From the NCBI GenBank assembly GCA_038063895.1, contig JBBTUG010000012.1, forward strand, positions 14,165-78,164: a DNA stretch of 64,000 nucleotides. The letters are read 5' to 3'. Positions 30,701 through 54,912 of the stretch are shown piece by piece (the stretch's first letter is position 1; the number at the start of each line of letters is the position of its first letter). The notes under the pieces are model-generated. The model saw only the letters and a list, made by a program, of their open reading frames with translations. It ran no database searches and was not told the origin of the DNA. The stretch is from Patescibacteria group bacterium (GTDB taxonomy: Bacteria > Patescibacteriota > WWE3 > JAMCXX01 > JBBTUG01). The translations under genes were made by a program, and so were the position numbers.

Positions 30701-31282
30701 TCAGCTGGTGAATAACCTTTTGGTTTTCTCCAACTTCTTTGGATTTTGTGCTTCCCTAAATAACTTTAATACGATTTCGGTATCTCTAAAATCGTCTTGA
30801 GCGGCTAATTTCAGGAACTCATCAAAGGAGAATGTTATTAAATTTATCTTTTCGCCTGAATCTACCTTTTGACCTTTAACTTTGTGACAGCCTTTCGCAA
30901 TGAACGTATAGCAAGCCCAATCTACTTTTCCGGAAATTTGTATTGCGTCCCAAAGGATAAATTCATCAGCCTTGAAACCGGTTTCTTCTAAAAGTTCGCG
31001 CTTGGCCGCTTCGAGAGGATTTTCTCCCTCATCAATCCGCCCACCAACTGTCCCTAGAAACGGCCGGCCGTCGGGTTGTTCCTGTTTTGAAAGAAGTATT
31101 TTCCCGTCTGAAGTTACCGGTAGAATGTTTACCGTATCCGGTCGTTTTACTTTTTCAAAGATTTTATTGTGGCCATCATACATTTTCTGCTCCCACTGAT
31201 AAACGTCAAATAACTTTCCTCGGAATACCCGTTTAGCGTTTTTCGGAATAGGTTGCCAGGATGGGGGCCGTTTGGTGTTCAT
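30701..31282 (-). CDS. NUDIX hydrolase
   Basis: The product has the Nudix box GGRIDEGENPLEAAKRELLEETG. Confidence 0.8.
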   Translation of the reverse strand: MNTKRPPSWQPIPKNAKRVFRGKLFDVYQWEQKMYDGHNKIFEKVKRPDTVNILPVTSDGKILLSKQEQPDGRPFLGTVGGRIDEGENPLEAAKRELLEETGFKADEFILWDAIQISGKVDWACYTFIAKGCHKVKGQKVDSGEKINLITFSFDEFLKLAAQDDFRDTEIVLKLFREAQNPKKLEKTKRLFTS

Positions 31283-31872: not shown

Positions 31873-31947
31873 TGGCTGCGGGGCGTGGATTCGGACCACG
31901 ATCTCCGGTTTCAGAGACCGGCGATACTACCGTTGATCTACCCCGCA
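31873..31947 (-). tRNA. tRNA-Gln (anticodon CUG)
   Basis: The minus strand reads UGCGGGG-UA-GAUC..., with anticodon stem CCGGU/ACCGG and loop CUCUGAA. The T-arm is CGUGG-UCCGAAU-CCACG, the acceptor is fully paired, the discriminator is G and CCA is encoded. It is 75 nt with a 3-bp D-stem, as in many tRNA-Gln. The T-loop UCCGAAU is slightly unusual. Confidence 0.7.
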
Positions 31948-32837
31948 ATACACCTGAACTTTCTGAAAAATATCAACTTTTCAAACCTTCTAACTTCGGC
32001 CCTCTTTCTCAATCTCGTGGCTATATTTCGGTACTCCGGATGATAGTTTAACATTTCCAAGGCCTTACCAACATCTTTAAGAAGTTTCGGATTCCGATTC
32101 GCGAATTGGAAGTTATAAGTGCAGGTTGGTAAATGCACCGACAACGACCCCTCCGCCTCGAATAAACCTTTTAGTATCCAGACTAAGTACATCTCGGATT
32201 TCCAAGCCCAATAGGGAATTCCCGTTTCTGATTTCCCTCTGTCACCGGAAGAAATACCAAGACGCTCTGAAATTTGCTTCTGGTAAATCCGCCACTTAAC
32301 TCCGTTTCCTTTCCTAGCCAATGCCGGGGTTTTACTAAAAAAATGTTGCATCAGTTTTTTGGTGTAGTTAACAAGTTTCGGATACTTTACATTAAGAGCA
32401 ATCGTTAGTGACTCTGTGCGCGGAAATTTCTGAATGTGCCCATCGCCTAAAACTAAACCAATTAGAAAGGCCAGCTCTTTAGACCTTCTAAAGGACGGAT
32501 ACTTGTTGCGGATAAAGCCCTTTTTAATCATTTTAGTCCTCCAACGCGCGAAATTGTCGATGTGCCGCTTTCTCATCGTCTCGGAAATTTTTAGAACCCC
32601 CGGGTGAGTGTCCTTAGTAAAACCTGTACTCCAAGAAACGTTTCTCCCCTCAAGGCTTTTTCGCCACTTTTGGTAAAGACTGCTGGTTTTTGGATAAAGA
32701 CACGGCGGGGTGGCAAACCTAATGCTTTGCGAAGGAAACAAGACTTTATAAGCCCTAGGGCTCAACTGGTGTTTAGATTTTAGATGGGTGCTGGAGATAA
32801 TACCAAATTTTTGGTGACAAAGCCGGCAAATAACCAT
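31938..32837 (-). CDS. LAGLIDADG homing endonuclease with N-terminal C2H2-like zinc finger
   Basis: Two LAGLIDADG motifs are present (LIGLVLGDGHI and LKGLFEAEGSLS), so the protein is double-motif and monomeric. The N-terminus reads CRLCHQKFGIISSTHLKSKH. The 3' end overlaps the tRNA-Gln 5' end by about 10 nt. Confidence 0.8.
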   Translation of the reverse strand: MVICRLCHQKFGIISSTHLKSKHQLSPRAYKVLFPSQSIRFATPPCLYPKTSSLYQKWRKSLEGRNVSWSTGFTKDTHPGVLKISETMRKRHIDNFARWRTKMIKKGFIRNKYPSFRRSKELAFLIGLVLGDGHIQKFPRTESLTIALNVKYPKLVNYTKKLMQHFFSKTPALARKGNGVKWRIYQKQISERLGISSGDRGKSETGIPYWAWKSEMYLVWILKGLFEAEGSLSVHLPTCTYNFQFANRNPKLLKDVGKALEMLNYHPEYRNIATRLRKRAEVRRFEKLIFFRKFRCIAG

Positions 32838-35878: not shown

Positions 35879-36405
35879 TTACCAACGAAGAACAATTTAA
35901 AAAAATAACGGAAAAAATCGAAGCGCTGAAAAAGGCCAACAAGTTTGATCTTTCACTGGACGAAGATTTAAGCCTCGCCGTAATGAACCTTATCAGTCTG
36001 GAGGAGCACTTCTTTTTTACCGCCGAAAAAACCGGCAAGCTTGGTTACCTCGCGTTGCTGAAAGAAACCCGGGAAATCCGCAAGGAGCTGATGGCCCGGC
36101 TCGTCGATAAAAATGAGGGGGAAACCTGGTGCATCAGCAAGCACCTATTGGCCGCGACCATGCGCCTGATTGAGGTCGGGACGAAACTTCAGACGGATAA
36201 CAAAGAGGAGGAAGCTAAAAAGATGTTTGCTTCAGCCTATCGGGTTTACGCCCTCTTTTGGGCGGTCCGGTTTAAAGTTATTGATCTGGCGGGTGTGAAA
36301 AAAATTCCGGAGACGATTATTAATAAAGACGATAAGAATCCGCAGGAAAAGCCGTGGACTTTTGAGGAGATCATCAATAAATTGGTTGATTGTTGCGATG
36401 AATAA
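35875..36405 (+). CDS. hypothetical protein (176 aa)
   Basis: The start overlaps the ccdA stop (ATGA). Confidence 0.35.
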   Translation: MITNEEQFKKITEKIEALKKANKFDLSLDEDLSLAVMNLISLEEHFFFTAEKTGKLGYLALLKETREIRKELMARLVDKNEGETWCISKHLLAATMRLIEVGTKLQTDNKEEEAKKMFASAYRVYALFWAVRFKVIDLAGVKKIPETIINKDDKNPQEKPWTFEEIINKLVDCCDE

Positions 36406-42956: not shown

Positions 42957-44060
42957 TTACCGCCAGCGGTAGACGGAATATATCCACTCCAGAACAGTTT
43001 TCGTCTCCCCAAAACGGTCGCCGCTGCCAAGAATTATCCCAACAATTTCGTGTCCGCCACGATTAAACAGGGAAATGAAACAGCCTCCCGCCCGCAAGGT
43101 ATAGCCGGTTTTAATCCCGCTAATTCCCGAATAGGACTTCAGCAGGTCGTTGGTGCTGACGAGCTTGTGGGAAAGTCTCCCGTCGGTGGAAGTTAATAAA
43201 ACCTCTGGCAGGGAAACCACTTGCCGTAAAAATTCATCTTTTAAAAAAGCTTTCGCTAAGATCAGCAGATCCGCCGCCGTACTGTAGTGCTGGTCGTCAG
43301 ACGTTTCGTCCAGCCCAATTGGATTGGCAAATTTTGTCTCCTTCATCCCTAAACTTTCCGCCTTCATATTCATCCCGGCCACAAAATCAGTTACGGTTGT
43401 TTTGTGGGTTGAGAGCGCGCAGGCCGCGTCGGAAGCGGAAAAAACCAACAGACCGGTGAGAAGACTTCTGGCGCTCAGTGTTTCACCGGCGATCAGTCCG
43501 ATTTTCTGGCTGTCGGGTAAAACCAAGCACTCCGGCGGAACGATAATTTCCTCGTCCAAAGGGTAGCTCTCGACCGCGACCAGAGCCGTCATCATTTTCG
43601 TCAAAGACGCCGGCGGCAATTTTCTAAGCGGGTTTATTTCAAAAAGTGTCGCGCCGCTTTGGAGGTCGAAAAACAACGCGGCCTTAGCGGTCAGAGTGGG
43701 AAGGTCGGGGCTGTCAGGAATCCGTTCTGGATTTCTTGATAGCGGCGCCTCGGCGAGGGTTTTAAAAGTACTAGTGCCTTTAACCACTCCGGGCTCAACC
43801 TCAGGCACAGAGGGTAACGAAGCGTTATCAACTTTACTCTCCGCTAACTGACTGAAACGGCTCTCTTTTTCGCCTTTTAGCAAAGACGAAGAGGAAGCAA
43901 CTGGGGAAGAGCTAACAATCAGAACTGCCAAAACAAAACTAGGAACAATCCTTCGCCAGGGAAAGCTGTTTAAAGGATAGGCCTGCCGGATTTTTAGAAG
44001 ACCGACTTTCAATTGGCGGTATTTTTTACGGATGGAGTATTCAACGTCCTGGGCGAGCAT
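42957..44060 (-). CDS. D-alanyl-D-alanine carboxypeptidase (serine-type, PBP5-like)
   Basis: The product has SxxK (ASLTKMMT), SxN and KTG (GIKTGYT) motifs. The start was chosen at MLAQDVEY (44060) to avoid the upstream overlap. Confidence 0.65.
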   Translation of the reverse strand: MLAQDVEYSIRKKYRQLKVGLLKIRQAYPLNSFPWRRIVPSFVLAVLIVSSSPVASSSSLLKGEKESRFSQLAESKVDNASLPSVPEVEPGVVKGTSTFKTLAEAPLSRNPERIPDSPDLPTLTAKAALFFDLQSGATLFEINPLRKLPPASLTKMMTALVAVESYPLDEEIIVPPECLVLPDSQKIGLIAGETLSARSLLTGLLVFSASDAACALSTHKTTVTDFVAGMNMKAESLGMKETKFANPIGLDETSDDQHYSTAADLLILAKAFLKDEFLRQVVSLPEVLLTSTDGRLSHKLVSTNDLLKSYSGISGIKTGYTLRAGGCFISLFNRGGHEIVGIILGSGDRFGETKTVLEWIYSVYRWR

Positions 44061-44067
44061 TAGTTCT

Positions 44068-45423
44068 TTAAGAAGGTGTCGGGCCCTCAATAACCGGTCC
44101 GAGGCGGAAATCAATGCGTTCCATATCGCGGGGAAAAAGAGAGGCTTCCCGGACATTGGTCAGATTTAAGAACTGCTTGGTCAGCCGTTCCAGACCGAAA
44201 GAAAACCCCCCCTCCGGAGGCATTCCATATTTAAAAGCCATTAAGTACATTTCATAATTTTTCGGGTCCATTCCGTGCTCGGCAATAGCGGCCACCAGCT
44301 GATTGTAGTCGTTTATCCGTTGCGAACCGCTGAGAATCTCCAAACCTCGGAATAAAAGGTCAAAGCTCAGACTGAATTCGGGCTCCTCGGGATCCGGCCG
44401 GGTATAAAACGCGCGTTTCTTTGTCGGATAGTGGGTCACGGTGACAAAATCGCTTTCATATTTTTGCCTCGCCCAAGAACAGATATCAACCTCGTCCTGC
44501 GGACTTAAATCTTTTTCGCCCCTGACGTCCCGTCCGAACTCTTTGAAAATAATTTCCTGAACTTCGTGCATTTTAAACCGGGGAATTTTCCCGTAAAAGG
44601 CTTTTGGAACTTTAAACATTTCTAAAATGGCGGCATCTTTCGCTTCGACCGCTTTCAGCATCGAGGTTCCGACGGTTTCCAGGTAATCCAAAAGGGTCGT
44701 AAAATCTACGAAGCCGAATTCACAATCCATCTGGGTGGCTTCCGTCAGGTGGCGGGTGGTGACTGACGGCTCCGCCCGGTAGGCTTTCGCGACTGTATAA
44801 ACCCGCTCGAAAACCGGTACCACCATCTGCTTATAAAGCTGGGGGCTCTGGGTTAAAAAGGCTTTGTGGCCGAAATAGTCAACGAAAAATACTTCCGCGC
44901 CGCCCTCAGTGGCCGAGGCCGAAATTGTCGGCACAACAACTTCGGTGCACTCCAATTGTTGAGCGGCCTTTCTAAACGCATCTAAGATTGTCTCTTGGAC
45001 TTTAAAAATCGGCGCGACGGAAGCGTGGCGGAGAGTCAGACAGCGGTGGTCTAGAAGGGTCGGCAGTTCGAGGTTCAGCTCGGCACTACCCATATCAAAA
45101 GGCAAACTTTCGGCAACCGTTAAGATCTTTACCATTTCCGCTTTGACTTCAACCTTACCGGTCGGTAGGTTAGAGTTGACGGCTTTCGCTCAGCGCTCCA
45201 CAACGATGCCGGTAATCTCCACAGCATACTCCGCCCGCAGTTCCTCAACTTCCGGTTGTTTCGAGAGCGGATCGGTAAAAACTGCCTGAATGATTCCGGA
45301 CCGATCCCGTAAATCGATAAAAACAATTTTTCCGTGGTCGCGCCGCCGGTTAACCCAGCCGTTAAGCCTTACTTTCTCACCGATTTTTGTTGTTGCCGCT
45401 GCAGCTAAAGTCCTTTCCATCAT
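44068..45423 (-). CDS. asparagine/aspartate--tRNA ligase (AsnRS / archaeal-type AspRS family) interrupted by an in-frame TGA at 45190-45192
   Basis: An N-terminal OB anticodon-binding domain (45423-45193) and a class II catalytic core (45135-44068, motif 3 [15 protein letters not shown]) lie in the same frame. They are separated only by TGA plus 18 codons ([18 protein letters not shown]). Confidence 0.7.
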
Positions 45424-45464
45424 AAAAACACTAACAGATCCCTCGTCGCTGACTCCTCGGGATT

Positions 45465-45488
45465 AACCTGCCTGCCGGCAGGCAGGTT
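45465..45488. repeat. perfect 24-bp palindrome AACCTGCCTGCCGGCAGGCAGGTT in the aaRS leader
   Basis: The sequence is read directly. Confidence 0.7.
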
Positions 45489-45548
45489 CGGCTACCGTCC
45501 CGCTACGGCGGGGCGAGCCTCATTGAATATGCTATAATAATAAGTGAG

Positions 45549-45567
45549 CCCCTGAAAGGGGTTTTTT
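45549..45567. terminator. short GC hairpin (CCCCU-GAA-AGGGG) with T6 on plus and A/T-rich flank on minus; bidirectional terminator-like
   Basis: The element lies 20 nt downstream of the minus-strand gene ending at 45587. Confidence 0.45.
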
Positions 45568-45586
45568 ATTTACGGAATGAGTTTGG

Positions 45587-47683
45587 CTATCGCACAGCGG
45601 GCGTGCACATCTCTCCATCTGCAACAATACCATTAATATTGCTCTGAGCGGCACTTTTGAGGCACCGTAACATAGGATAATAAGAAGATAGCCACTCGTC
45701 GGGAGTAGAATCGGTCAGAAGATAATCGTAGAATAAAGTGAGATTTCGGTACACGTTTGGGAAGCGTGAGTTTGACTTAACGAGATCGCTACCCTCCCAG
45801 CGCCATACGTCTTTCCAGATTGTCCAGGAACGGGGCCCGGAACCGGTGGCATCCAGAGAGTAGGAGTAAATAATTTCTTTTATTCCGTCATCATTTAGGT
45901 CAGTCAATTGGGCGTGGCTGACTCCATTTATAAGTTTAAGCAATAATTTAAAGGATTCATTTTCCTGTGTATATAGATAAAAGGGATGAAACAGTCCCGT
46001 TCCGGAGACGAGATACTCAACCGCCACCTCCTTTTTTTGGTCACCGTTAAAATCTCCAACTTCCACCCATTGAACGTACTCCCCAGGTCCCTTAACTTCT
46101 CCACCAACCTCTTTTATTTCGTTATCTTCTAAAAAGTATTTAATCCTCCCCGAGTTATCAATAACGCTTAAACCTACGGCAGAATAAGGCACGTGTTTAA
46201 CGAAAGCGAGACGGTTTTCGCTATCCAATCTAGCGGTCTCGTTGATCTCATAAGCGGGGGCGGCTTTTGTAGATTCGCTAAGTACCAGTTCCGCCGTTTG
46301 TTTCACGTTGCTACCCTTAAAACTACCTCTCATGGCGGCCGATAAAATAGGAAAGGCTGAAAATATAGCGAGGAGTAATAAGAGAGACCAAAGTTTATAT
46401 CCGCTGGAGTCGGCACCATCCCGATAAACTTTGTAAACCTTTCTCTGGTAATCAGAATCGCCGCCGCCGTTGTAATCAGCGACGGCCTGTTCCCAAGACT
46501 TCCAAAATCTACCCCCGTTTTCCTTTATTCCCTGAGCTTTATGATAGAGCCAACGGACGCCCCAGCGAAGGCTCTCAACCGGCTCGTCGACCTTCGCATC
46601 TTTATATTCTAATACCGTTGTTTGACCATTAACCCACTCAAACTCCCTGGCGATTTTACCGGTATTCGGATCCGTCCAACCGTCATTTTTTAGCGTATGA
46701 ATCGCGGGGTTATTCTTATCCGCCACCTGCAGTACATCCGGGTAGGCCGGCTGTCCGGTTGGCGAAGTGCCAAAGCCCAGGCGACTTTCGATATAGGCAA
46801 CCGCTTTAATCAGATTGGGGTCCAGGGGAAGGGGCGGCGGATCCTCTTGGTCAAGGAACTGTCGATTCCAATTATTGACCACTTCAAAAATTTCACCGTC
46901 AAAACGGTTGTAATTTTCGCCTCGGACACCATTCTTGTATTGCTTGATAATTTTACTATCGGAAGTCTTTAATTCTAATCCCAGAGAGTTGATTGTCGGC
47001 GACTCGTCCGCCCAAAACTCCAGGTAATGAAGTCCTCCCGGGGAAAGGGCCTCACTAAATGTCTTCTCGGCGTTCCCCTTCCCGAAAAGAGTCTTTAAAA
47101 CACTTGAAGCAAAAATCCAGTTCTTGTGGAGGAGAGATAAATTGTTCTTTTTAATCTCGCCATCGACCACAACTTTTAAGTCATCACCATCGGGAAACCG
47201 CCATTTAAATGAGGCGCTGACTTTAAACGAAACTAAACCGACGTCGACCAAAACCACCGTAAGCCAGGGACGGGCTCCCGCCTTTTCCGCTGTTTCATTG
47301 AGATCAATAATTAAATTAGGAAAAGATTCGATTCTCTTTATTTCGGCTATTTCGACAAAGGCGCTATGATCAGGAATAAAGGAAAGGGTGTGAGCTCCTT
47401 CCTCGAGGAAAAGCACAAAAGAGATGGTCTGACGAGCGTTGTGCAGTTTCCCACCGGAAAAAGCGGCCGGAGAATCAAAAAAACGTTGGGGATTTTTCAG
47501 CTGAGGAAACGGTCTTTGATCTATCTTAAGCCGTAAATCTTCATCATCAGTTTCGTTTTGACCACGCTGTTTTTCACTTTTAACCCGGGCCGAAACGGAA
47601 AGGAGGTACCAGCCGGACGCGGTAATATTAAACCCCACGACAAAGATCTCATCTAATCTGACCGATTTTAGAGGCAGACTCAC
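45587..47683 (-). CDS. large hypothetical protein with SLT-like lytic transglycosylase core and central TM helix
   Basis: The 698-aa product contains AVAYIESRLGFG ... AVADYNGGGDSDYQRKV (ES catalytic and AYNaG-like motifs) and a TM segment (LWSLLLLLAIFSAFPILSAA), with ~240-aa flanking domains. Confidence 0.45.
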   Translation of the reverse strand: MSLPLKSVRLDEIFVVGFNITASGWYLLSVSARVKSEKQRGQNETDDEDLRLKIDQRPFPQLKNPQRFFDSPAAFSGGKLHNARQTISFVLFLEEGAHTLSFIPDHSAFVEIAEIKRIESFPNLIIDLNETAEKAGARPWLTVVLVDVGLVSFKVSASFKWRFPDGDDLKVVVDGEIKKNNLSLLHKNWIFASSVLKTLFGKGNAEKTFSEALSPGGLHYLEFWADESPTINSLGLELKTSDSKIIKQYKNGVRGENYNRFDGEIFEVVNNWNRQFLDQEDPPPLPLDPNLIKAVAYIESRLGFGTSPTGQPAYPDVLQVADKNNPAIHTLKNDGWTDPNTGKIAREFEWVNGQTTVLEYKDAKVDEPVESLRWGVRWLYHKAQGIKENGGRFWKSWEQAVADYNGGGDSDYQRKVYKVYRDGADSSGYKLWSLLLLLAIFSAFPILSAAMRGSFKGSNVKQTAELVLSESTKAAPAYEINETARLDSENRLAFVKHVPYSAVGLSVIDNSGRIKYFLEDNEIKEVGGEVKGPGEYVQWVEVGDFNGDQKKEVAVEYLVSGTGLFHPFYLYTQENESFKLLLKLINGVSHAQLTDLNDDGIKEIIYSYSLDATGSGPRSWTIWKDVWRWEGSDLVKSNSRFPNVYRNLTLFYDYLLTDSTPDEWLSSYYPMLRCLKSAAQSNINGIVADGEMCTPAVR

Positions 47684-47754
47684 CTTACTATTATAAGACC
47701 TTGCTGAAAATGTAACAAGAGAAGTCGGCTCACACCTTTATAAGGTAAGGGGTT

Positions 47755-48201
47755 TTATTTTTGGCGTAACTTTTCCAATAAACCTGTTAGCTCCGTGACT
47801 GAAGAAATAATAAAATCGGGTTTTACGGTGCCTTCCGAAGGAATAGTTTTTTCCGCCTGAATCCAAACCGTTTTCATTCCCAACCCTTGCCCGACGGTGA
47901 TCTCCTCACTTAGCCGGTCACCAACAACAAATATATCTTCCGGTAACAGACAGAACTTTTCCTTAAATTCATTAAATACCGCCGGGGTCTTCTCCGGAAC
48001 AACCCGCACCCAATGGAGGAAGCTCATTAACCCCAAACTTTGGAGTAAACGTTGTTTTTCCTCACTGCCGAAACTGACTAAACCCAACTTGATCCCCTGC
48101 TTGTTGTAAGCCTCGAGAAAAGACAAAACTCCGGGAAAAAGCCGGCCCTCACCGGGATCATACAACGTCCGCACGAAATCAAAGATAATCCCCTTGATCA
48201 T
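47755..48201 (-). CDS. HAD-like hydrolase
   Basis: The product starts IIFDFVRTLYD (motif I-like) and has VVGD..., a motif IV-like element. Confidence 0.5.
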   Translation of the reverse strand: MIKGIIFDFVRTLYDPGEGRLFPGVLSFLEAYNKQGIKLGLVSFGSEEKQRLLQSLGLMSFLHWVRVVPEKTPAVFNEFKEKFCLLPEDIFVVGDRLSEEITVGQGLGMKTVWIQAEKTIPSEGTVKPDFIISSVTELTGLLEKLRQK

Positions 48202-48257
48202 AATGATCTATTATAACCTTTCCTTTGAGGCTTTTGGTCTAATTAAGTATACTTCTA

Positions 48258-48308
48258 GAGGGAAGCGGAGGGTGAAGTCTAAATCCCCCTTTCCGCTTCC
48301 CTCTTTTT
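48258..48308. terminator. 12-bp stem hairpin (GAGGGAAGCGGA ... TCCGCTTCCCTC) followed by T5 on the plus strand
   Basis: The element lies between two minus-strand genes. Its orientation of function is unclear. Confidence 0.35.
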
Positions 48309-48326
48309 GTCCCTCTCACTGATACT

Positions 48327-49577
48327 TCATTTCTTCTTCCTGACAATAACCGGCATCGCAACAGCATCAGACGAGCCGTGAACCAAGGGACGGTCAAGCA
48401 AAGTGGCGTCGATATCAGCCACCTCAACGCTATCTCCTTCAACCAGATAAACCACACACAAACGGACGCGGTAGCCGTCCGCCTCAACCAGCCCCTCTCC
48501 GGCCTCGTTCAGAAAAACCACTTTATGCTCCAATGTCGGCACCTCCGGCTGGATAACGTAAAGAGGTCCGTCTCCGTTAGCGACTGGGAAAAGAGCTCCC
48601 AGTAACCTGTTTCTCCACTCAATAGCGGTCAGTTGCGAACTGAAGGCAATACCCTTTCCCTGACCACCATTACAACGTTTAAGCACCCATTGGAGCGTTT
48701 CTTTGCCGGAGTTGTCTAAACGTCTGCCCATAAATTCTTCGGCTCCCCAAGAATAACCCCGACCCTTAAAAGGGATCTTGACTTCGGGAACGACGGGAAA
48801 TGTCCAGGGAATAAACCCCTTCAGACTTTGCCGGTCGCTACTACTCAAAGCGAAAGACCGCCCGGAAGCCGTCTCCGGATTATGAACGGCAACCATCCAG
48901 GAATTATCCTCAAGCCGAGTAAATGGCGGCCAGATATCCAGCTTTCCGCCTGATAACAGTTCGCCAAGGCGTTGCCCACCGGGAAACACTTTTGCAGACT
49001 GCGGCTGCAACCAGGCGAGAGTGAAAGTGCGGTAGACCACGTCCCCTTCAAGCAGACTTTCCCCGGTTTCCGAAACTTCACAACAAAGACCGAAGCTCTG
49101 GAGGTACCGCGCCAGAAGACGGTACTCTGCCCCGTAACCGAGACGGTCGGGACTAAGGAGAATCACCAGGCGGCGCCCGCTGAATTTTTTCAGTAAGAGC
49201 CCGGCAATTGTCTTCGCTGCGCCTGGAAAAGGATCAAAGGAACCTTCCGGCAGGCCCACGGAACGGTAGTAAGTTTCCCGAACCAGTTGGGTGGCCAAAT
49301 CCCAGACTGGGGTTCCGTTGAGTTCAAACAGGACAAGATAGCCCCGGCGATCTAATGTAAAATCGGCCCGGAGATAAGTAGCCTCGTCGCTAGAATCGAC
49401 AGCAGCGCGCAACTTCGGTAACAGCTGTCCCAAGGCCAGCGCCTGCTGCCACTGCTGTTCCCAAAGGTAATACCATTTCGGAGAAACCCGCCAAAGCCTA
49501 GGCGGATTACCATAAGCGAAACCGTAATGCCAAAGTGCCCGGCGGATCTCGTCAGCCGTCCTAATAATCTCTTCCAT
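48327..49577 (-). CDS. glutathionylspermidine-synthetase-family (YgiC/YjfC-like) ATP-grasp amide ligase, putative
   Basis: The start MEEIIRTADEIRRALWHYGFAYG... and the RADFTLDRRGYLVLFELNGTPV segment resemble the GSP_synth pre-ATP-grasp/ATP-grasp pattern. Codon usage is GC-rich. SD AGGAGAAGG lies 4 nt before the ATG. Confidence 0.5.
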   Translation of the reverse strand: MEEIIRTADEIRRALWHYGFAYGNPPRLWRVSPKWYYLWEQQWQQALALGQLLPKLRAAVDSSDEATYLRADFTLDRRGYLVLFELNGTPVWDLATQLVRETYYRSVGLPEGSFDPFPGAAKTIAGLLLKKFSGRRLVILLSPDRLGYGAEYRLLARYLQSFGLCCEVSETGESLLEGDVVYRTFTLAWLQPQSAKVFPGGQRLGELLSGGKLDIWPPFTRLEDNSWMVAVHNPETASGRSFALSSSDRQSLKGFIPWTFPVVPEVKIPFKGRGYSWGAEEFMGRRLDNSGKETLQWVLKRCNGGQGKGIAFSSQLTAIEWRNRLLGALFPVANGDGPLYVIQPEVPTLEHKVVFLNEAGEGLVEADGYRVRLCVVYLVEGDSVEVADIDATLLDRPLVHGSSDAVAMPVIVRKKK

Positions 49578-49979: not shown

Positions 49980-50264
49980 CTAACGGTAGAGTTGGCTATG
50001 GGTGCCAAGGGCTTCGAAAATAATTACCTTCCCGCCTTCCTGCTCCAAATAAATCGTCCGCCAGTCACCAGTAATATTAAGGCTCCGAAGGCCTTTAAGT
50101 TTTCCTTGTAAGAGATGGTTACCAAGCTTTGGGTCACGGGGATTCAGAAGGAACAACTTAAACCGTTCTCGAAAAGCAATTTTAATTTCCAGCGGAGCTT
50201 TTCCTAGTTGCTTATTAAAAACCTTTGAAAAATCAACTCTGAGTTTTTTTCCGTTCATTGGCAA
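49980..50264 (-). CDS. RelE/ParE-family toxin
   Basis: The product reads LKGLRSLNITGDWRTIYLEQEGGKVIIFEALGTHSQLY (RelE/YafQ-like C-terminus). Confidence 0.65.
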   Translation of the reverse strand: MPMNGKKLRVDFSKVFNKQLGKAPLEIKIAFRERFKLFLLNPRDPKLGNHLLQGKLKGLRSLNITGDWRTIYLEQEGGKVIIFEALGTHSQLYR

Positions 50265-50541
50265 TCATGTCATCCAAATACCCTAAGACCGCGTTCCCAC
50301 CATTAAAAGAAATAACCCGCCCCGCCTTAATATCTCTACGGGATTCTGCTAACATTTGTAAAAGATACTCGGTCGGTTCCTCGTCGGAAGCACTAAAAGT
50401 AACGGTCTTCGTCCGGATGACCTGCTTTAAGTAAGCGTTTATTAAACCGCTTAAACTCAAGCCTAAGTCATCCGCAAGCTTTCGCGCACGGATTTTCACT
50501 TGAGGTTCGGTTTTGATGTTAATAATGGCCGTTTGGTTCAT
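50233..50541 (-). CDS. RelB/DinJ-family antitoxin
   Basis: The N-terminus is RHH-like (INIKTEPQVKIRARKLADDLGLSLSGLINAYLKQVI). The gene overlaps the toxin gene by 32 nt. Confidence 0.6.
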   Translation of the reverse strand: MNQTAIINIKTEPQVKIRARKLADDLGLSLSGLINAYLKQVIRTKTVTFSASDEEPTEYLLQMLAESRRDIKAGRVISFNGGNAVLGYLDDMIANERKKTQS

Positions 50542-53465: not shown

Positions 53466-53933
53466 TTACTTAATCGCGATGATTTTGTAGGTAGTCTTAA
53501 TTGAGCAGGAAACGATCACGGTATCTCCGGGCTTTGTTCCCAATAACGCCTCCCCGACAAGGGATTCGTAGGAAATAAGCCCTTTGGCGGGATCAACTTC
53601 TTCGCTCCCGACCAGCGTTAAATCAAAACGCTCTCCCTCCGCTTCAACGAAAACCGTGGAACCGACTTCGACCTTGGTACTTCGTCTTTTCTCAACCGTG
53701 ACAGCGCATTTTAAAAGCAGCTCCAGTTCCGAAACCCGGTTTTCCAGTAGGTCCCATTCCTGCAGAGCGGCTTTATACTCTAAATTCTCCTCAACCTCAC
53801 CATCCTCCCTGGCGTCCTTTATACGTCGGGCAGTTTGGCTTCGCGCGGGACCGGTCAGGAATTGATACTCACTTTTCAACTTTTCCAGTCCCTTTCGGGT
53901 AATATAGGTCTTCTTAAGCGTAACAGCAGGCAT
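53466..53933 (-). CDS. GreA/GreB-family transcript cleavage factor paralog (divergent coiled-coil tip)
   Basis: The product has a GreA N-terminal coiled coil and an FKBP-like C-terminus. Its tip reads REDGEVEENLEY instead of GDISENSEY. The start was chosen at MPAVTL. Confidence 0.65.
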   Translation of the reverse strand: MPAVTLKKTYITRKGLEKLKSEYQFLTGPARSQTARRIKDAREDGEVEENLEYKAALQEWDLLENRVSELELLLKCAVTVEKRRSTKVEVGSTVFVEAEGERFDLTLVGSEEVDPAKGLISYESLVGEALLGTKPGDTVIVSCSIKTTYKIIAIK

Positions 53934-53934
53934 C

Positions 53935-54402
53935 TTACGCCACTTCAATAATGGTGTAGATTAGATTACCGACAGGAGCCGACACTTGAACTTTATCGCC
54001 AACCTTCCGGCCCAAAAGAGCCTGGCCGAGCGGGGACTCATGAGAGATTTTATTGGAGAGCGGATCAGCTTCTTCAGCGCCAACGAGCTGAAAATGCTGC
54101 TCCTCCCCGTCCAGATGAACTTTAATGTGGCTTCCCACCCCAACCACCCCCGGCTTGCCTTTCTCTTCCTCGACAATAATGGCGTTGTTTAAAAGCTTCC
54201 GCAATTCCGTAATCCGGCCCTCGACAAACCCCTGTTCCTCCCGGGCGGCGTCATATTCCGAATTTTCGGAAATATCCCCGAGTTCGCGGGCCTCTTTAAT
54301 CTTTGAAGCCACCGCTTGGCGGCGGTGCTCCGTTAATTCTTTGTATTCTTCCTGTAATTTTTCGAACCCTATCTTCGTTAAATAGACGTCTTTAGTGATC
54401 AT
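53935..54402 (-). CDS. greA: transcription elongation factor GreA
   Basis: The canonical tip is GDISENSEYDAAREEQ. The start is at MITKD (54402); the track ORF uses TTG at 54411. Confidence 0.8.
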   Translation of the reverse strand: MITKDVYLTKIGFEKLQEEYKELTEHRRQAVASKIKEARELGDISENSEYDAAREEQGFVEGRITELRKLLNNAIIVEEEKGKPGVVGVGSHIKVHLDGEEQHFQLVGAEEADPLSNKISHESPLGQALLGRKVGDKVQVSAPVGNLIYTIIEVA

Positions 54403-54411
54403 AATCGGCAA

Positions 54412-54516: not shown

Positions 54517-54912
54517 TTAAACCGGTACCGAGTTTAATATCTTCTTCACCCTGGTCACCAACTCGTCCGGAGTCACCCGGTATTTCATCACGAAGTCCAC
54601 CGCGCCGAGGTCAAAAGACTGCTTAATATTATCGTTACTGCCGAAGTTAGTCAAAGTCAAAACCGGAATTTTTGATAGCTCGAAATCTTCATGCAGACTT
54701 TTAAGGACCTCGAACCCGCCTAATTTCGGCAGCATTATATCAAGAATAATGAGATCCGGCCTGTTCTTGGCTTTGACTAAAGCTTCTTCACCGTCAAACG
54801 CCTGTTCCACCGTTAAACCCGAGCTCTCAAACTCCAACCGGTACGTTCGGGCCAGGTTAGGGTCGTCTTCAACAATAAGTACTTTTCTGATTACCGGTTC
54901 TTCTTTAGTCAT
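54517..54912 (-). CDS. single-domain response regulator (CheY-like receiver)
   Basis: The product has VLIVEDD, the phospho-acceptor Asp in LIILDIMLP, and K in the C-terminal motif. Confidence 0.8.
   Translation of the reverse strand: MTKEEPVIRKVLIVEDDPNLARTYRLEFESSGLTVEQAFDGEEALVKAKNRPDLIILDIMLPKLGGFEVLKSLHEDFELSKIPVLTLTNFGSNDNIKQSFDLGAVDFVMKYRVTPDELVTRVKKILNSVPV

Follow-up and report, generated by a model that had tools for sequence, protein, structure and literature searches.

An aspartyl-tRNA synthetase (AspRS) gene of a Patescibacteria metagenome-assembled genome (MAG) is interrupted by one in-frame TGA, and the question raised by this locus is whether the codon is read through or recoded, whether it separates the two polypeptides of a split enzyme, or whether it belongs to the organism's gene at all. 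All coordinates refer to the window, i.e., the whole 64,000-nt stretch of DNA that was analysed, which derives from a MAG of the Hainich groundwater well H41 (run ERR3858138, one of three replicate filters). Comparison with assemblies of the same strain from other samples identified the TGA as a private single-base variant of one assembly, and neither as recoding nor as the boundary of a split enzyme. The features discussed are listed in Table 1.

Table 1. Position and strand of the AspRS gene, its two annotated pieces, the in-frame stop, and the second site at which the window stands alone
Feature	Coordinates	Strand	Description
Complete AspRS gene, predicted archaeal-type non-discriminating	44068..45423	(-)	451 codons plus stop; otherwise identical to the intact allele P0122
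N-terminal fragment, first part of the OB-fold anticodon-binding domain	45193..45423	(-)	77 aa; NCBI: MEK7611153.1
ORF of the catalytic core, start at internal Met97 (ATG 45135)	44068..45135	(-)	355 aa; NCBI: aspartate--tRNA(Asn) ligase MEK7611152.1
In-frame TGA at AspRS residue 78	45190..45192	(-)	Variant base 45192: A on the plus strand, T on the gene strand; C/G in sister assemblies, giving GGA (Gly)
Second private variant	49326	(-)	Plus-strand A vs. C; TTG>TTT, Leu84Phe in a 416-aa hypothetical protein

On the minus strand, the pieces follow each other in a single frame in the order 77-aa ORF, TGA (45192-45190), 18 sense codons, ATG (45135), and 355-aa ORF. The joined 451-residue translation, with X at the stop, gave one match to the NCBIfam model NF003483 (aspartate--tRNA(Asn) ligase), which scored 460.3 bits (cutoff 353), covered residues 1-437 against profile positions 2-436 of 438, and spanned the stop. 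Since one match extends over both ORFs, this is a single gene broken by one codon, and a chance juxtaposition of two ORFs is excluded. Against TIGR00458, the joined protein scored 338.5, i.e., under the cutoff of 368.4. Pfam placed an OB-fold domain (PF01336) at residues 18-101 and a class II D/K/N core (PF00152) at residues 122-433, so that the 451-aa protein consists of an N-terminal OB fold and the class II core and is devoid of the bacterial insertion domain. The closest solved structure was AspRS2 of T. thermophilus (1N9W, E-value 3.5e-84), which its depositors call a non-discriminating, archaeal-type AspRS, and the alignment continued through the stop, the 18 codons after the TGA falling on the closing part of the N-terminal domain ("GGLEVQAKEVEVL"). 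A preceding reading of the DNA made from the letters only (henceforth the sequence-only reading) had described two ORFs in one frame, parted by TGA and 18 sense codons, which is borne out by the sequence and by the NF003483 match. It had also aligned the 18 codons with the linker of the enzyme, and this part does not stand: PF01336 (residues 18-101) and the 1N9W alignment put them within the OB fold, which is itself cut by the stop at residue 78.

Judged from these matches, the gene is predicted to belong to the archaeal-type non-discriminating AspRS family, in which it is unremarkable. The two annotated pieces, MEK7611152.1 and MEK7611153.1, lie on a contig of 145,426 bp. The gene resembles T. 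thermophilus AspRS2 (1N9W/3KFU) and the other NF003483 proteins in being full-length, in combining an OB fold with a class II core, and in its size of about 450 aa; the sole difference is the TGA, which is found in one assembly, whereas the intact allele P0122 is an ordinary family member. AspRS orthologs were frequent in Patescibacteria (Microgenomates) MAGs, and the best AspRS locus among the GTDB representatives was 66% identical and lay in a neighbourhood of Daviesbacteria, Levybacteria, and Microgenomates. A second AspRS copy was not found in the 64-kb window by tblastn, the sole match being the LysRS paralogue at 23% identity.

The window could be compared with assemblies from other samples at 54,729 of its 64,000 positions (9272-64000). 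The allele P0122 is an uninterrupted protein of 451 aa that differs from the product of the window at Gly78 alone and falls into the same 90%-identity cluster. It is encoded in the ENA assembly ERZ1292633 Hain_H41_02um_R1 (145,429-bp contig, coverage 11), which stems from the same replicate as ERR3858136, in the Logan assemblies of both sister replicates (ERR3858136 and ERR3858137), and in that of SRR32696709, which belongs to a separate run series. Four further assemblies of the strain, made from three other samples, hence have GGA at codon 78. In its immediate context, the window reads CGC TGA GCG, and CGC GGA GCG is present at the loci L006 to L009 as well as at L003, the 93%-identical relative. 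The next relatives, likewise from other samples and 93, 88, and 82% identical, carry GGA, GGG, and GGA, respectively, so that the comparison with orthologs proposed by the sequence-only reading yielded a glycine codon each time. Across the homologs aligned, the column of residue 78 contains G, S, P, D, or T.

Over 11-21 kb, each of the four same-strain loci aligned to the window without gaps and with two mismatches, and the two sites were the same in all four. Throughout the 54,729 positions compared, these were also the only sites at which the window stood alone (45192 and 49326), and both are plus-strand C>A changes. At 45192, A replaces C on the plus strand in a CCG>CAG context, which corresponds to G>T on the gene strand and to GGA>TGA in the codon. 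Over the whole AspRS gene, the window and the intact allele are exactly one nucleotide apart, and Met97 as well as the sequence upstream of ATG 45135 are the same in both. The remaining differences within the compared range were private to other assemblies and located mainly at contig ends or in contigs with a coverage of 3; 7.3 kb of such low-coverage contigs from the same dataset contained two private singletons, and one was C>A.

For the H41 dataset, one well was sampled in January 2019 on triplicate 0.2-µm and 0.1-µm filters. After phenol/chloroform extraction of the DNA, NEBNext Ultra FS libraries (enzymatic fragmentation) were sequenced on a NextSeq 500 (2 × 150), and metaSPAdes was run on each replicate by itself (PMC8672522). 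The Logan assembly of ERR3858138 is 100% identical to the window at 43777-48423, TGA included. Since metaSPAdes and the independent Logan assembly both arrive at T from this run, the T is present in the reads and a mistake of the assembler is ruled out; the agreement of two assemblers furthermore implies at least two k-mer observations, which also rules out a lone base call of low quality. The TGA is thus the consensus of one of three replicates, and it is found in the consensus neither of the two remaining replicates nor of the separate-series run. A sense codon at this position, for which the sequence-only reading had proposed to look in the raw reads, was found as GGA in the sister assemblies, whereas the Logan assembly of ERR3858138 itself has TGA. 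The depth of ERR3858138 at this locus looks thin: its Logan contigs measured 5.5-19 kb here vs. 38-44 kb in replicate 1 (coverage 11), and they left gaps at 43595-43776 and 49292-49338. The latter gap straddles the second variant at 49326 and suggests very low depth or a bubble.

We infer that the variant arose in vitro and reached the consensus at low depth. Probably, a consensus error caused by low depth or DNA damage in the reads of one library created the stop, and the organism itself has an intact gene with GGA. Its AspRS would accordingly be normal and uninterrupted, with GGA (Gly) at codon 78 and no special mechanism of expression, and the single G>T substitution (plus-strand C>A) would be carried by the reads of ERR3858138 and the resulting MAG alone. 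At a thinly covered position, a single library molecule or a few carrying an oxidised guanine could have set the base, and so could a PCR or sequencing error belonging to the same class. Several observations point in this direction. The replicates were taken from one well in one campaign, and a real allele should therefore not dominate one of them while staying unseen in the consensus of the two others. As the interrupted gene is the sole AspRS within the window, a null allele should not become the majority. Finally, one of the two variants is a nonsense and the other a missense change, and that both alter a protein is expected of changes unfiltered by selection.

Costello et al. 2013 (PMC3616734) described an oxidative library artefact of the class C>A/G>T, caused by 8-oxoguanine and favouring the CCG>CAG context, which appeared at low allelic fraction in acoustically sheared DNA and has read-orientation bias as its diagnostic feature. 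Both variants of the window are plus-strand C>A and are found in one library only, and the one creating the stop has exactly the CCG>CAG context. The artefact described there was, however, of low fraction and linked to acoustic shearing, whereas the variant discussed here is at the level of the consensus in a library fragmented enzymatically. If 8-oxoguanine was the source, low depth is thus required to bring the base into the consensus. Two further points weigh against an error: two variants are a very small sample for inferring a mutational signature, and oxidative mutagenesis in vivo leads to the same class of substitution (C>A/G>T). Together, the k-mer support, the mismatch with the published artefact, the small sample, and the in-vivo alternative keep a sub-clonal null allele as a serious rival.

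According to this rival, which we hold to be possible rather than probable, the TGA results from a recent and genuine GGA>TGA mutation in a near-clonal population, perhaps linked to Leu84Phe 4.1 kb away, and dominates replicate filter 3, for instance through a clonal micro-aggregate. The allele would be unfixed and without function, and its carriers would be cells that are dying or limping on basal read-through of UGA. The recovery of T in two assemblies of ERR3858138 is in line with this, and the occurrence of two private C>A variants only 4.1 kb apart, in 54.7 kb otherwise free of them, could represent a linked haplotype. The mutation would have to be very recent, given that the AspRS gene is otherwise untouched, and any residue inserted during read-through would probably be tolerated at position 78, which is variable among homologs (G, S, P, D, T). 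Yet T is missing from the consensus of both sister replicates, which share the well and the campaign, and from the separate run. The stop moreover removes the end of the OB fold and the entire catalytic domain of the only AspRS in the window, so that strong counter-selection makes a majority of such cells unlikely, and the base after the stop gives a UGA-G context, which is not known to be a particularly leaky one in bacteria. A real segregating allele would bear on the tolerance of CPR populations towards nonsense alleles, a reading for which nothing in the present data provides support. It is very improbable that a real sub-population of this Microgenomates-type CPR bacterium has UGA where a glycine codon of its only AspRS should be and survives by useful read-through, possibly with insertion of Gly; if true, the locus would be a natural snapshot of the "ambiguous intermediate" stage preceding the UGA-to-Gly reassignment known from other Patescibacteria. 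With either a consensus error, our preferred explanation, or a sub-clonal allele, the stop is neither programmed nor conserved, nor is it a characteristic of the gene that the organism has. Of the four options named by the sequence-only reading, a base-call error and a recent nonsense mutation survive, and programmed read-through or recoding as well as a split enzyme are contradicted by the GGA of the same strain, the lack of a recoding structure, and the position of the break inside a domain.

Programmed recoding or a changed code, in which UGA would stand for Gly (code 25), Trp, or selenocysteine and GGA>TGA would be silent or functional, is very improbable and, within the limits of the window, refuted. 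What speaks for it is the position of the TGA at a glycine codon, where the change would be synonymous under code 25. The assignment of UGA to Gly (translation table 25) is known from Gracilibacteria and Absconditabacteria, two other lineages of Patescibacteria. The likeness to these lineages consists of the shared superphylum and of a UGA where relatives have Gly; the difference is that TGA terminates genes here, is otherwise absent from reading frames, and is not shared by the same strain elsewhere. As a G>T substitution creates TGA only from GGA, and as the features of code 25 that were tested are not found, the resemblance to a UGA=Gly code is superficial.

In this genome, TGA does serve to terminate genes. 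It ends 19 of the 66 long ORFs of the window, and in five TGA-terminated proteins tested (LysRS, RNase Y, a Nif3-like protein, an ADP-forming CoA ligase, and a GldA-like ABC ATPase) the stop was located 0-9 residues from the end of the family profile; for RNase Y, all 479 of 479 residues were aligned and reached profile position 514 of 514. The remark of the sequence-only reading that other genes end at TGA and that the genome is not globally recoded agrees with both the stop usage and these profile ends. In a scan of about 18,700 codons, the AspRS TGA was the only one joining two pieces of a recognisable gene. The other same-frame pairs joined by TGA were either antisense frames or separate genes, namely an MFS transporter with a metal repressor and TypA with an unrelated stretch upstream of it, and no in-frame TGA was present inside the 23 called genes of L006, one of the loci carrying GGA at codon 78. 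Codes 25 and 4 were rejected on three grounds, namely the use of TGA among the stops, the points at which TGA-terminated genes end in their profiles, and the scan for TGA-joined pairs. The tRNAs within the window are limited to tRNA-Gln(CTG) and tRNA-Glu(CTC).

Selenocysteine insertion and a structured read-through signal were rejected by folding and by Rfam searches. The 91 nt from 45200 to 45110 folded with -22 kcal/mol and a z-score of -0.26 vs. shuffled sequences, i.e., a stable structure after the UGA was not found, and no Rfam match with E <= 1 was obtained in 44000-45700. This is consistent with the by-eye impression of the sequence-only reading that a SECIS-like structure is lacking. 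Cys never occurred at the position aligned to the UGA in the homologs aligned. Programmed read-through was likewise rejected, as the stop is not conserved among close relatives and GGA is present in the four same-strain assemblies. Even assemblies of the same strain do not share the TGA, the orthologs at 93, 88, and 82% identity have glycine codons throughout, and the gene is intact in the nearest relatives, which are MAGs of the Microgenomates type.

That a 77-aa OB polypeptide and a 355-aa catalytic polypeptide assemble into an active AspRS is the least credible reading of all, as the break lies inside the OB fold, the end of which is encoded by the 18 codons that both polypeptides would lack. 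In its favour, the 355-aa ORF has an ATG of its own (45135) and NCBI annotates the pieces separately. The start codon noted by the sequence-only reading is thus present; the weak Shine-Dalgarno sequence it had noted in addition was not recovered, and none at proper spacing before ATG 45135 was seen by direct reading. Among the 120 homologs and 80 genome loci listed, all AspRS genes were contiguous and no split version was found in relatives. Met97 and the sequence upstream of it are unchanged relative to the intact allele and thus show no adaptation to re-initiation. A decaying pseudogene was rejected on the basis of the single nucleotide difference from the intact allele, a difference that indicates neither adaptation to two cistrons nor decay.

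The feature is an error or a fleeting mutation and not a real property of the organism. For the deposited MAG this entails a correction, since MEK7611153.1 and MEK7611152.1 are one gene with a private one-base variant: an essential synthetase is listed as two proteins because of one base that is absent from the strain in sister samples. As a caution, a lone in-frame stop in a low-coverage MAG calls for a comparison with replicate assemblies before it is taken as evidence of recoding, a split enzyme, or gene loss.

Some observations on the population and on the surroundings of the gene were made alongside. Between 9272 and 64000, in the comparison with L006 to L038, the population appeared near-clonal, with 0 differences over tens of kb between H41 in January 2019 and the SRR326967xx runs. 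L011/L022 (GCA_964357555.1), of the same strain, had 11 differences within 88 nt at 31149-31236 and seven within 13 nt at 36102-36114 and was otherwise identical; these clusters probably reflect patches that vary between strains or chimeric joins at the ends of contigs. The AspRS leader (45424-45586) contains a perfect 24-nt palindrome, AACCTGCCTGCCGGCAGGCAGGTT, at 45465-45488, the 20-nt core of which is an insertion vs. the closest relative L003 (GCCGAA|TTAATCC at that point). The remaining leader, comprising a AACCCCTTTCAGGGG hairpin and TTATTATTATAGCATA, is conserved and had no Rfam match. A 698-aa ORF (45587-47683, minus strand) with no Pfam family on record is situated between a HAD-like hydrolase and AspRS in this strain and is absent from this place in L003 and L004, the relatives at 93 and 88% identity. 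Farther away on the minus strand, two tandem paralogues of the GreA/GreB family (155 aa each) and a RelB/YafQ-type toxin-antitoxin pair are located at 53466-54411 and 49980-50541, respectively. A 299-aa ORF at 31938-32837, also on the minus strand, showed a faint match to LAGLIDADG_3 and abuts or overlaps tRNA-Gln(CTG) at 31873-31947.
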